Source: Candidatus Saganbacteria bacterium
GTDB taxonomy: Bacteria; Margulisbacteria; WOR-1; XYC2-FULL-46-14; WPAF01
DNA: 64,000 bases
Assembly: GCA_016223205.1 (NCBI GenBank)
Contig: JACRPM010000001.1
Location: forward strand, 61,072-125,071
Reading direction: 5' to 3'
The notes beneath the pieces were generated by a model, which was not told the DNA's origin, did no database searches, and saw only the letters and a list, made by a program, of their open reading frames with translations. The position numbers and the translations under genes were made by a program. Shown here in pieces: positions 3,538-6,582 of this stretch (positions are counted from its first letter, which is position 1; each line of letters begins with the position of its first letter).

Positions 3538-6500
3538 ATGGCAGCTAATTACCATATCCACCCATTGGTAGCGGATCTCTACGGCGTGCCTAGACAGCAT
3601 GTTGTCCATCCTCTGCGCCCTCTCAGCTATAGTCTGCCAGTCGGCAGACGGGGAGGGAAATTAAGAGGTAAGTACGAGGAGTTTATCCTCTCCCTGGTCA
3701 GCGGCGTGCGATCACATCCGATCTTTAAAAGTAAACCGCTTCCGCTCTCTGAGAACACACTGAATAAATTAATGGAATCCGGGGCCGAAAGTCTGGCGCG
3801 CTCCAGGTCCGGACAGTTGGAATGGCTGGCTGGTCAATATTTTATCGGCAAGGAGGATTTGCCGGGAATCCTCCGGGGAGAAGTGAGTGGGGATCTGGTC
3901 GGACGCATGGCAGTCTCCCTCCACTCAATGATCGACGATTATTTATTAAACGGCTACTCTCTGACCAAGATCAAGCTCGCGGTCCGGCTACTGTTATCGC
4001 GTCCGGCGGTCGAAGCGATCCACATTTCTTTTGAAGGGAAAATCAATCTGTCCGAGGCCTGGCGTTTGGCGACCTTCAGCACGCCAGACCCGCTGGCGGG
4101 TGGCGAGAGGGCAGAAAAAAACCTGGAACGAGTAAAGGCACTTGATGTCCAGGGCTATTTCTCTGAAAAAAATCTATTTGCCGGGCTCACGCCGCAAAGG
4201 ATTGCTGATCTTAAGAAGTTAAAGATCCCGCTTACGAGCCTGCGGCATTTCGCACATAATAATGGCAGGGAGCCGGTCGAAGCACTGAAAAAAGCCCTGT
4301 GTAACCTGGTGGAGCTGGTGAAATTCGATGTTCAAGCGTTTTTTATCAAGGAAAGATTGCCGGAGGGCCTTCCTGCCAAAAGATATGAGGAGATAAAGCA
4401 TTTCATTCCTTCTCTGGGGAAACTTTGGCGTCTGGCCGCTCATAATAGAGGTAAGCCGGTAGAGTCGCTGGAAAGGGCACTGCGAAACTTTTTCATGGTC
4501 CTGAAGTACAAGGTTCCCGAGGGTTGCGAACTGTCCATCTCGGACGCCTGGTTTTTTGCGGTCGGTTATATGACCGATCCGCTGGCAGGCGTAAATAAAG
4601 CCCTGGGAAACCTGCCGAAAATACTTAGTTTCGATATCCGGCGATTTTTTGAAAAAGCTGGGCCATTAAAGGATTTGACGATAGAACATCAAGAAGAAAT
4701 GAAAAGCATAAAACTGACTGCCGCCGAGGCCTGGCATTTTGCGATAACCAATATCGCCGATCCGATAAAAGGGCTAAGACAAGCTCTTCGGTATCTTCCC
4801 GCTCTCTATAACTTCAATGTTCAAAAATATATTGAGGATGAAGGTCTGCTTGCTGGATTATCGCCGGAGAAACGGGATCAGCTGAAAAAGCTAGTTCTGA
4901 CACCTGCGGAAAAGAAGCGTTTTGCTATCCAATATGGCAAGAAATCACTAATAAATATTAAAACCGCATTGCGTAATCTGGCGGAGATCTTACGGCATAA
5001 TAATGAAATCCCGATCTCAAACGCCAGATATATCGCGTTTAACAACCTGAATAAACCGCTGGAGAAGCTTGAGGGGGTCTTGCGTGGAATACCAGTGATC
5101 TTAGGTTTTGACATACAGGCATTTATCGAAAGCGAAGGACTTTTAAACGGCTTAACAGCAACGCGGCAGGAAGAGCTTAAGGAATTCACCCTTTCCCCCG
5201 CCGATGCCTGGACGTTTTCGATCCAAAACACCCCGGCGCCGCTGACAGCCGCAAAAAAGGCGCTCCGCGCTTTGCCGGATCTTCTGAAATTTAATGTTCC
5301 CGGTTTTCTCCGGGAAGCGGAAAGAAAGGAGCTCGAAGCTTTCGAGCTGACATTGGCTGATGCCTGGGATTTTGCTGTTAATCACAGCCGCGCTCCGCTG
5401 GACCGGCTGAAAAAGGTCCTTCTCAATCTAACGGAATTGATGAGGTCGGATATAAGTAAGCATCTAAAGTTCACGCTGGCGGATGCCTGGAGATTTGCGG
5501 TCCATAATTTAGATGACCCATTAAAGAGCGTAAGACAGGCGGCGGAAAACCTGCCAAAAATACTTGAATACGATATAAGGGGATTCATAAAAAAACAGGC
5601 GGAGTTTAAGGGCCTTGCACCGGAACGCCGCGCGGAGCTCGAGCAGTTTCAATTGACCCCGGCGGAAGCGCGGATCATCGCCCTGCGCCAGCTGGGCGAG
5701 CCATTGGAGCGGGTCAGGGAAGCGGCGTTGCAAATAATTCTCATAATGAAAAAATTCAACGCTCCCTTGCTGCAGGCGAGAAGAATGACGGTGATCTTTC
5801 ATTTTCGTGATCCAGTTGAAGCATTTGAAAGGTTCACTCAAATGCGGCCCGTCCCTGATGAGGAAACCTGGCAAAAAGTGTTGGCCAACATGGGGTTGGT
5901 TAATTATTTCGCCAATAAATATCTGGGGCGGGGATTGGATTTTGATGACTTAGCCGGAGAAGGAACATTTGGCCTGATGCGGGCGGTTCAGCTGTTCGAT
6001 CCTCACAAGGGGGCAAAATTTTCAACTTATGCATCTTTCTGGATAAGGAATAAGATCCAAATGGCCATTGCAAATCAGGGACGGACCGTTCGAGTCCCTG
6101 TTCACAGGCAAGAGAGGTTTGCACAGCTGGAGAGAGCCCGACATCTCTTGTGTGAGGAATTCGGCCGGGAAGCGACCAATGAAGAGATTGCGGCTCATCT
6201 GGAAATCGATTTGAGCGCCCTTCAGGAAATATTGAAAACTGCCGGACAGGGCGAGGTTTCTTTTCAAAAACCGGTGGGGGCCGAAGGGGATGGCGAACTC
6301 CTGGATTTAACCCCCGATAGGGCAGCGGCGGACCCGCTGGGCCTGGTTATAAATAGAGACTTGCGAATAAAATTGGAGAAAGAAGTGCAAAAACTCCCCA
6401 ACAGGAGAATGAGGGAAGTGATCCGCAGCCGGTTTGGCCTTAGCGGCAGAAAATCGAAAACGATGGAGGAAATCGGGGAAAGATACGGGGTGACCAGGGA

Positions 6501-6582
6501 GTGGATTAGACAGATTGAAAAAGAAGCGCTGCAAATTTTAATGGAACGCCTTCCGGAACTTAAGGATTTTTTGAAAGATTAG
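3538..6582 (+). CDS. RpoD/RpoS-type sigma-70 factor (regions 2-4) fused to a ~600-aa tandem helical repeat array
   Basis: C-terminal [62 protein letters not shown] (region 2), [14 protein letters not shown] (region 3) and [25 protein letters not shown] (region 4.2). Confidence 0.9.
4042..5850 (+). repeat. Intragenic protein repeat array, about 12 units of 36-62 aa
   Basis: Recurring LTxA(D/E)AWxFAxxNxxxPLxxLxxALxNLxxLLxF(D/N)(I/V)xxF...GL...EL; six units are 61-62 aa. Confidence 0.85.

Follow-up and report, generated by a model that had tools for sequence, protein, structure and literature searches.

What would a sigma factor do with 602 residues of helical repeats built into it? This question is raised by a 64,000-nucleotide stretch of Candidatus Saganbacteria DNA (assembly GCA_016223205.1, contig JACRPM010000001.1, positions 61,072 to 125,071; referred to below, at its full length, as the window), in which a single uninterrupted open reading frame (ORF) with an ATG start occupies positions 3538..6582 of the plus strand. 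Its product of 1014 residues consists of a 169-residue N-terminal domain, 12 helical units that make up the 602-residue array, and a sigma-70 part. The reading we favour, with a probability of roughly 40%, is that of an alternative sigma-70 factor in which the array serves as a module for sequence-specific binding, with DNA as the most likely ligand; this ligand and a recognition code, should there be one, are what we infer.

Promoters are selected by sigma regions 2.4, 3.0, and 4.2, and additional specificity is usually supplied by separate activators. In the window protein, a unit-structured array of 600 residues is built into the sigma factor itself, and the residues reading the -10 element are eroded and fast-evolving. 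Should the array bind DNA, promoters would be specified in another way.

Conservation of the repeat-sigma architecture

The same architecture is found in two other proteins. P0002 (1024 residues, Logan assembly of ERR10755944, locus L001) is 76% identical to the window protein over its entire length, with an alignment that spans 78 N-terminal residues omitted by the gene caller, all 12 units, and the junction with sigma region 2. P0003 (1299 residues, GCA_040961595.1, locus L002, positions 6658-10557) is diverged and comprises 14 long and two degenerate units, followed by sigma regions 2, 3, and 4. A partial third orthologue, 72% identical over the N-terminal domain, is present in locus L010 (JGI metagenome Ga0315289).

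In the comparison with L001 (Nei-Gojobori method), the ratio of non-synonymous to synonymous substitution rates (dN/dS) amounts to 0.238 in the N-terminal domain, 0.172 in the array, and 0.170 in the sigma part. Array and sigma part are equally constrained, both being under purifying selection.

The repeat array

The units were found by reading the sequence and were placed in register by MAFFT (boundaries in Table 1). Six of them have 60-61 residues, one has 52, and the remaining five, with 28-42 residues, are devoid of the second half. The consensus of the unit is L[ST]..[DE]AW.FA..N...PL.....AL.NLP.IL.FD...F...E.LL.GL.....EL..F. (dots stand for variable positions), and the unit profile matches the window protein in 12 stretches (754.6 bits). 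Scored against a profile from which the unit itself was left out, units 1-11 reach 20.5-79.6 bits, far above the values of their shuffled versions (at most 10.1 bits in 300 shuffles per unit). The original prediction, made from the letters of the window, of about 12 imperfect repeats within residues 169-771, six long and the rest shorter, is thus confirmed, with unit 12 as the weak one. Its leave-one-out score of 4.5 bits lacks significance; a larger profile of the clade, in which unit 12 was never included, gives 6.3 bits, a value reached by none of 500 shuffles (maximum 4.5 bits). The counterpart of unit 12 in P0003, LSARRAYKLAVAFAHPLEIL, is repeat-like by eye and scores 3.6 bits, which is reached by 6 of 500 shuffles and is not clearly above chance. 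We read unit 12 as a weak, degenerate terminal cap.

In the case of unit 8, the full-length form is found in P0002 and a 10-residue deletion in the window protein, therefore the short units arise by trimming long ones. Tandem Repeats Finder detected no repeats in the array at the DNA level, therefore the unit duplications are old. The array has a pI (isoelectric point) of 9.54 and a net charge of +18. No counterpart of the repeat was found in Pfam, NCBIfam, PDB, or by Foldseek (BFVD included), and the repeat seems to be a family of its own, apparently undescribed.

The array had been described as a fixed scaffold in which the residues following the FA motif vary from unit to unit. The triplets at this place are those listed originally (TFS, HNN, VGY, ITN, IQY, FNN, IQN, VNH, and VHN), with the addition of AHN and LRQ. 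A limitation of the variation to these residues does not hold, as ~6-8 positions vary per unit.

Predicted structure and the unit-specific surface

The model of the full-length protein has a mean predicted local distance difference test score (pLDDT) of 56.7, with values of 70-85 over most of the array and ~30 in the sigma part. All Foldseek matches obtained with this model were sigma factors, the array being swamped and the sigma part poorly modelled, and the search was discarded. An AlphaFold2 model of residues 332-603 was built from an alignment of register-shifted five-unit windows of related arrays, and reached a mean pLDDT of 87.6 and a predicted template modelling score (pTM) of 0.79. 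In this model, the long unit folds into four helices: H1 (unit positions 3-12), H2 (17-32) after a four-residue loop, H3 (36-43), and H4 (51-58). The short unit is composed of helix 1, the loop, and helix 2. The model supports the view that the N-terminal part of the protein is a genuine, rigid helical solenoid.

With the repeat-only model, Foldseek found nothing significant in PDB (best E of 0.59) or in the BFVD viral library (best E of 0.31). Among the weak matches, MTERF1 in complex with DNA occurs once (E 0.98, probability 0.18, template modelling (TM) score ~0.2). The mTERF/pTERF proteins are similar to the array in being all-alpha solenoids, but the match is not significant and is accompanied by no sequence match; the mTERF motifs have ~30 residues and three helices.

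In respect to the variable residues (position 10 of the unit is the A of FA), the within-protein mismatch in 23 distant proteins of the repeat family is 0.84 at position 12, 0.80 at position 8, 0.69 at position 5, and 0.68 at position 4, and does not exceed 0.12 at the scaffold positions 1, 10, 17, 27, and 32. Positions 4/5, 8, and 12 are placed on one face of H1 by their i, i+4, i+8 spacing. Near-identical units differ as if by a small alphabet, as in P0009 (RKRLAVGN, RKHLAVHN, and RKYLAVGN) and P0034 (HFAVGN, YFAVGN, RFAVNN, and HFAVYN), and the diresidues of the window protein are of the same kind (NN, HN, GY, QY, TN, QN, and NH). The maxima of variability are at positions 8 and 12, but positions 4, 5, 22, 35, 42, and 54 vary too in the distant relative P0006. 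At the DNA level, positions 8 (0.84), 54 (0.84), 4 (0.79), 12 (0.77), and 22 (0.75) of P0006 differ almost only non-synonymously, and many scaffold codons differ synonymously only.

Between the orthologues, positions 4, 5, 8, and 12 of the window protein show a dN of 0.120, versus 0.133 for the rest of the array. Being unit-specific and yet kept across species, these positions behave like specificity determinants and not like a neutral surface.

The sigma-70 part

A sigma factor with regions 2, 3, and 4 had been predicted at the C-terminal end, and it is borne out by three Pfam matches above the gathering scores: Sigma70_r2 (residues 783-850, 60.4 bits, cut-off 24), Sigma70_r3 (residues 861-933, 54.3 bits, cut-off 25.3), and Sigma70_r4 (residues 956-999, 52.2 bits, cut-off 24.1). 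The C-terminal 243 residues form a complete sigma2-sigma3-sigma3.2-sigma4 module. Its best sequence match in PDB is Bacillus subtilis SigA (7ckq_F, E 1.4e-50, residues 771-1012), and the identity to Escherichia coli RpoD is 38% over 251 aligned residues.

The best NCBIfam models are those of the RpoD/SigA/RpoS families, which all cover only residues ~780-1012 and all stay below their cut-offs. The equivalog cut-offs are missed for RpoD/SigA (TIGR02393, RpoD_Cterm, 209.5 vs 354; NF004208, 210.2 vs 555; NF006666, 198.6 vs 572) as well as for rpoS (TIGR02394, 192.1 vs 378.7; NF004207, 176.8 vs 394). The RpoD/SigA scores, together with the undetected regions 1.1 and 1.2, speak against group 1, and the presence of region 3 and of the region 3.2 linker separates it from the extracytoplasmic function (ECF, group 4) factors, which are defined by having no region 3.

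The lack of regions 1.1 and 1.2, already noted in the original prediction, holds at the sequence level. The Pfam models of these regions (PF00140 and PF03979) give no match to the whole protein at E≤0.01, nor to residues 1-169, 170-771, and 706-799 at E≤10. Few PDB alignments extend upstream of region 2 (for example that of Mycobacterium tuberculosis SigA), and they contain almost no identities there. A region 1.2 hidden in units 11-12, where DPVEAFERF resembles DPVRMYLRE, was considered and rejected, given the missing PF00140 match at E≤10 and the PDB alignments, which are unsupportive.

The residues were mapped on E. coli RpoD (reference taken from NC_000913.3), and the alignment agrees with the substitutions and conserved residues named at the outset (Q406G, W433F, Q437N, T440Q, and R441M changed; R584, E585, and R588 kept). 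The -35 readers R584, E585, R588, and Q589 are retained, and so are the extended -10 readers H455 and E458. In the -10/melting set, Y430 and W434 are retained, and the replacements are Y425A, W433F, Q437N, T440Q, and R441M. The other replacements are R385G, Q406G, N409T, R586W, K593E, and R596Q.

The -10 readers differ even between close orthologues: region 2.4 of P0002 shows Q437A and a retained R441. In P0003, regions 2.3-2.4 (residues 1116-1132) carry W433R, W434S, and a glutamate in place of R436, with region 4.2 (TRERIRQIE) intact. The canonical -10 melting chemistry seems dispensable in this clade of giant sigma factors.

Compared with the group 1/2 sigma-70 factors (RpoD/SigA, RpoS), the window protein has regions 2.1-2.4, 3.0-3.2, and 4.1-4.2 present and alignable, with the -35 and extended -10 readers kept. 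It differs from them in being devoid of regions 1.1/1.2, in the replaced -10/melting and core-helix residues, in its scores below every equivalog cut-off, and in bearing a 771-residue N-terminal extension of unrelated fold.

The repeat family

The original prediction implied that the architecture is a one-off, which is not the case for the repeat itself. When 1.84 billion representative proteins were searched exhaustively with HMMER and the 12-unit profile, 51 representatives were found at E≤1e-3 (25 at E≤1e-10), most of them without a sigma domain. The repeat occurs in ~50 protein clusters from several phyla; among the 51 representatives, array and sigma domain are combined only in the window protein, P0002, and P0003. 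The word-indexed searches recovered only the window protein and P0002, both with residues 1-775 and with a mixed full-length alignment as the query, and nothing with a short unit alignment, their prefilter being blind to the repeat family. One match, P0016 (889 residues, E 4e-13), is made of ~12 near-identical Pro/Ser-rich units of 80 residues and of other character; it is probably an unrelated false positive and was omitted from the analyses.

The close clade is defined by the N-terminal domain of the window type and includes P0002, P0003, and P0004, and, with weak homology in this domain, P0027 and P0038. The conserved motifs of the domain are HPL..LYG...PL.PLS..LPVGR..G, then ESL.RS.PGQLEWL and SLHSMI.DYLLNG. 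It has no Pfam match at E≤10, and a Pfam scan of residues 1-775 found no family. P0004 (781 residues) is encoded in a metagenome-assembled genome (MAG) of Margulisiibacteriota, the only one among 185,579 species-representative genomes in which the N-terminal domain was found. It combines the domain with 10 units and has no sigma part, and the next ORF is unrelated. P0027 and P0038 have short two-helix units of 39 residues and no sigma part either.

The sigma parts of the window/P0002 and P0003 lineages are 38% identical, a value no higher than the identity of either of them to E. coli RpoD. Both lineages share the derived R385G, I410F, and Y425A, the LGRG..F[DE]DL motif, and the P.PE..W junction, and these shared derived states probably reflect one ancestral fusion followed by fast divergence.

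The distant set comprises ~45 proteins with another N-terminal domain followed by 3-14 units of about 50-57 residues, with the pattern LTDENIA..LGWS..EV.E.FTP..RK.FAV.NI.DPL.AL..VK.NLE. They are annotated as 'hypothetical protein' and are found in ordinary chromosomal contexts. P0010 is conserved in 17 metagenomic contigs (L004-L007 among them), where its gene is divergent from a WhiB-family gene and lies upstream of pyk-pgk-tpi, a context suggestive of a host among the Actinobacteria and of a stable role in the chromosome. In locus L008, the genes of P0006 (10001-13231, 1076 residues, 15 units) and P0008 (13509-15326, 605 residues, 7 units) adjoin each other as tandem paralogues, the units of which are nearly identical save at a few polar positions.

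Possible roles of the array

In the favoured mechanism, the sigma module would bind core RNA polymerase and would read a TTGACA-like -35 element, as suggested by the residues it has kept. The -10 specificity would be non-canonical or weakened, given the altered -10/melting readers. Each unit would expose polar residues of its own (positions 4, 5, 8, and 12) on one face of helix 1, and the array would bind DNA next to the promoter, acting as a second determinant of specificity, modular in nature, that makes up for the degraded -10 reading. A sequence-specific module is proposed because the unit-specific polar residues are kept between orthologues as strictly as the scaffold. DNA appears the likeliest ligand because the array is attached to a sigma factor, because a basic character is common to all sigma-clade arrays (net charge of +7 to +38, pI of 9.1-9.8), and because of the unit-specific polar residues and a faint helix-turn-helix (HTH) signature. 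The latter comes from the second half of the distant units, where partial matches to HTH models, Sigma70_r3 included, were summed (57.5 bits for P0011 with Sigma70_r3, profile positions 22-40), with no single stretch passing. Binding to DNA is also compatible with the non-significant Foldseek matches, among which two DNA-binding solenoids appear: TALE, as the sole named family that recurs, and MTERF1, on one occasion.

The alternative sigma factor with a new -10 specificity, as first proposed, agrees with the intact regions 2-4, the kept -35 readers, and the altered -10 readers. Sequence evidence does not choose among the four roles suggested at that time for the solenoid (sensor, built-in anti-sigma, protein scaffold, or TALE/PPR-like modular nucleic-acid reader; TALE, transcription activator-like effector; PPR, pentatricopeptide repeat). 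The idea of a reader gains circumstantial support from the orthologue-conserved unit-specific polar residues, the basic array, and the stand-alone use of the repeat; homology of the repeat to TALEs was tested and rejected.

Several observations weigh against a DNA-binding array on an active sigma factor. The core-binding helix holds Q406G and N409T, and core binding is assumed from conservation. The variable surface of ~6-8 positions per unit makes no clean two-residue code, and such variation is found likewise on protein-binding repeat surfaces. Some distant arrays are acidic (net charge of -13 in P0005, -22 in P0006, and -4 in P0010). No HTH signature was detected in the units of the window protein itself at E≤10, and no significant similarity in sequence or fold to any DNA-binding domain was found. 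Furthermore, the H1-H2 loop, which is the site of phosphate contacts in TALEs, has a conserved acidic/N-cap residue (D16-P17).

The spread of the variation over 6-8 positions, the acidic charge of several distant arrays, and the missing DNA-binding homology are all as expected for an array that binds proteins and gates or localises the sigma factor, be it as an anti-sigma, autoinhibitory, sensor, or scaffold element. We consider this role, the main alternative, possible, if on the unlikely side. Helical repeat arrays with variable polar surfaces (HEAT, ANK, TPR) are mostly protein-binding, and region 1.1, which the array would replace, is autoinhibitory in group 1 sigma factors. A possible partner is the product of up463, a gene that keeps its place beside the sigma gene in three loci. 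It has no cytoplasmic anti-sigma domain of the kind typical of membrane anti-sigmas, and it was not found next to P0003 or P0004; a classical anti-sigma is unlikely, because only ~7 residues precede its transmembrane helix. A role of this kind would also have to be reconciled with the basic character of the array in all members of the sigma clade and with near-identical units differing at a few polar positions (P0008, P0009, P0034), which are more typical of polymer readers. An array that binds proteins would still be a new kind of regulatory extension of a sigma factor, although less surprising.

The reading of the array as a DNA-binding module can be carried further: the repeat may represent a hitherto unknown class of nucleic-acid-reading solenoid, modular and 'programmable', with the array, and not the -10 reader, selecting the promoters of a 'guided' sigma factor. 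Every unit would touch a few bases of DNA by way of its specific polar residues (positions 4, 5, 8, and 12). We put this forward as a doubtful extension. The architecture behind the use of TALE, PPR, and PUF proteins as programmable binders is of this type, with a small number of polar residues specific to each unit on a conserved scaffold, and a recognition code, if it exists, would be of biological and engineering interest. The stand-alone relatives found in genomes of Patescibacteria, of Margulisiibacteriota, and of an Actinobacteria-like (WhiB-linked) kind would in that case be widespread, unrecognised sequence-specific DNA binders.

A principal (housekeeping) sigma factor with a lineage-specific extension, the array of which would serve a general, non-specific function such as nucleoid association or stability, seems improbable. 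Long N-terminal regions are known in primary sigma factors (PMC10011835), with actinobacterial SigA/HrdB as the analogue, the RpoD/SigA models score best, regions 3 and 3.2 are present, and the 64 kb of the window contain no second sigma gene. However, the scores are far below the RpoD/SigA cut-offs, and region 1.2 is lacking. W433, Q437, T440, and R441, which are kept in group 1/2 sigma factors, are replaced here and variable between close orthologues, and the gene is missing from nearly all genomes scanned, with 64 kb of its own genome in view.

The array shares with TALE, BurrH/Bat, MOrTL, and STAR repeats (PMC11417379) a scaffold of tandem helix-loop-helix units, each with its specific polar residues where the first helix ends, and it resembles them in design: 4-16 units, near-identical units in some proteins, and a portable module. 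A divergent member of the TALE or TALE-like proteins (TALE, RipTAL, Bat/BurrH, MOrTL), reading one base per unit by residues 12/13, is nevertheless very improbable. In its favour are the superficial pattern LTP..-hydrophobic-..[IF]A-variable-...AL..L.LP.L, the variability maximum at position 12, and the TAL effector dHax3, which is the sole recurring named family among the non-significant PDB matches of Foldseek (9 of the top 50, E of 0.87-3.2, TM score of 0.19-0.24). The units, however, have 61 residues (four helices) or 28-42 residues instead of 33-35, more positions are variable, and position 13 is a conserved N and not a variable one. The unit profile found no TALE/BurrH chains in PDB at E≤10; as a control, TALE repeats verified against PDB find Hax3, AvrBs3, and even BurrH at E≤4e-96. 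With an hhalign probability of 3%, no PDB profile match, and no Foldseek match to dHax3 below an E of 0.87 or above a TM score of 0.24, homology to TALEs is rejected and, at the available sensitivity, refuted.

Neither the AW.FA..N...PL repeat family nor a sigma fusion is contained in two systematic screens of TALE-like or DNA-binding tandem repeats (PMC11417379, PMC5472282), the one of 2017 covering only periods of 30-43 residues. A literature search on sigma factors with repeat extensions gave nothing relevant, and the repeat-sigma fusion is new, i.e. undescribed in the searchable literature.

That the protein is an exported effector which redirects the RNA polymerase of another cell, as also suggested originally, found no support and has hardly any probability: its one argument is the analogy with TALEs. 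No hydrophobic signal-like segment is seen at the N-terminus when the sequence is read (the tools used could miss an unrecognised signal), the gene is found at a conserved place in the chromosome, flanked by leuD and leuC, and the scanned neighbours show no match to a secretion-system family. Nor does any defence-system match extend beyond the sigma domain. MzaA of the MZA anti-phage system (NF041931, PDLC02203) is likewise a large (~700 residues) sigma-70 protein with the C-terminal sigma part behind a long non-sigma region, but only profile positions 480-714 of 726 (NCBIfam) and 429-655 of 683 (PADLOC) are matched, and the N-terminal part is unmatched. Within the libraries used, MzaA is the sole curated case of a large sigma factor with so long an N-terminal region. 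Membership in this defence system was rejected (194.5 bits versus a cut-off of 800, the sigma part alone being matched). PADLOC gave no match for up463, and the other neighbours scanned (with Pfam; leuC also with NCBIfam) look metabolic, none of them defence-like.

Finally, an assembly chimera or a decaying pseudogene counts as refuted, with nothing found in its favour: the architecture and the junction near 5850 recur in the independent assemblies ERR10755944 (P0002, Logan) and, diverged, GCA_040961595.1 (P0003, an NCBI MAG), the N-terminal part recurs in Ga0315289, the frame is open over 1014 codons, and dN/dS remains low (~0.17 throughout array and sigma part).

The leuD-up463-sigma-leuC locus

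In the window, L001, and L010, the gene order is leuD, one or two up463-like genes, the sigma gene, and leuC (Table 1). The leuC gene is convergent with the sigma gene and overlaps its stop codon by 4 nucleotides. It appears that a two-gene plus-strand cassette was inserted into a minus-strand leuC-leuD pair and then kept. Homologues of up463 immediately precede the sigma gene in L001 and in L010, the latter having two copies (1087-1875 and 1879-3171). In the protein, a short N-terminal segment leads into a single transmembrane helix, which is followed by a Pro-rich stretch and a conserved C-terminal domain that belongs to no known family. Translation probably begins at the Met of residue 28 (MKIGKISR...) and not at the TTG at 2023. 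A perfect 11-bp inverted repeat (3404-3414 / 3420-3430, CCCCACACTAA / TTAGTGTGGGG) lies over the up463 stop codon, with ATTTAT behind it, and may be a terminator, although a simple scan did not list it.

Table 1. Features of the sigma locus in the window and their coordinates.
Feature	Coordinates	Strand	Residues	Remarks
N-terminal domain	3538..4044	+	1-169	No known family
Repeat array	4045..5850	+	170-771	12 units; leave-one-out profile scores, unit alignment, AlphaFold2 model
Unit 1	4045..4224	+	170-229
Unit 2	4225..4404	+	230-289
Unit 3	4405..4530	+	290-331
Unit 4	4531..4713	+	332-392
Unit 5	4714..4896	+	393-453
Unit 6	4897..5007	+	454-490
Unit 7	5008..5190	+	491-551
Unit 8	5191..5346	+	552-603
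Unit 9	5347..5472	+	604-645
Unit 10	5473..5652	+	646-705
Unit 11	5653..5766	+	706-743
Unit 12	5767..5850	+	744-771	Truncated in helix 2; leads into sigma region 2
Sigma-70 family part	5851..6582	+	772-1014	Pfam r2, r3, r4
Sigma region 2	5884..6087	+
Sigma region 3	6118..6336	+		Followed by the region 3.2 linker
Sigma region 4	6403..6534	+
Promoter/operator-like block TTGAAATTTC-N6-TATCAAACGAAAATC	3495..3525	+		31 nucleotides; ends 13 nucleotides upstream of the ATG
up463	2023..3414	+		Upstream partner gene; no Pfam or NCBIfam match
leuD (3-isopropylmalate dehydratase small subunit)	1538..2023	-		Left flank; Pfam Aconitase_C; 88% identical homologue at the same place in L010
leuC (large subunit)	6579..7859	-		Right flank; TIGR02083 LEU2, 693 bits, above cut-off; 85% identical homologue at the same place in L001

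The promoter/operator-like block upstream of the sigma gene is invariant in the window, L001, and L010, and its flanks diverge. It includes a -35-like TTGAAA, with GAAAAT 18 nucleotides downstream. Further copies of the block were sought in the 64-kb window as possible promoters of a regulon, and none beyond chance were found.

In respect to the start codon, the gene-caller version of the protein (P0001, 936 residues) begins at Met79 (position 3772). We take the ATG at 3538 as the true start, because residues 1-78 are conserved in P0002 and P0004 and the changes there include synonymous ones (21 synonymous and 25 non-synonymous differences from L001 in the first 78 codons). No Shine-Dalgarno sequence precedes this ATG in any orthologue. 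The leader between the promoter-like block and the ATG is only ~13 nucleotides long.

The Pfam calls among the scanned neighbours are leuB, leuD, leuC, SLOG, and thiC. The SLOG cluster4 (LOG-like) gene (7900-8421, plus strand) begins immediately after leuC, divergent from it, and overlaps a ThiC-family radical SAM gene (8418-9581, plus strand) by 4 nucleotides. Farther away, three ORFs of 627-657 residues (54430-56361, 56368-58341, and 58424-60307) are mutually dissimilar, the first and the third having no Pfam match. Two paralogous ORFs of 633/634 residues on the plus strand (25408-27309 and 32852-34756; 28% identical, E ~1e-72), also without a Pfam match, are located in a long plus-strand cluster for polysaccharide synthesis, together with UDP-glucose dehydrogenase, Wzy-like, flippase, and aminotransferase genes.

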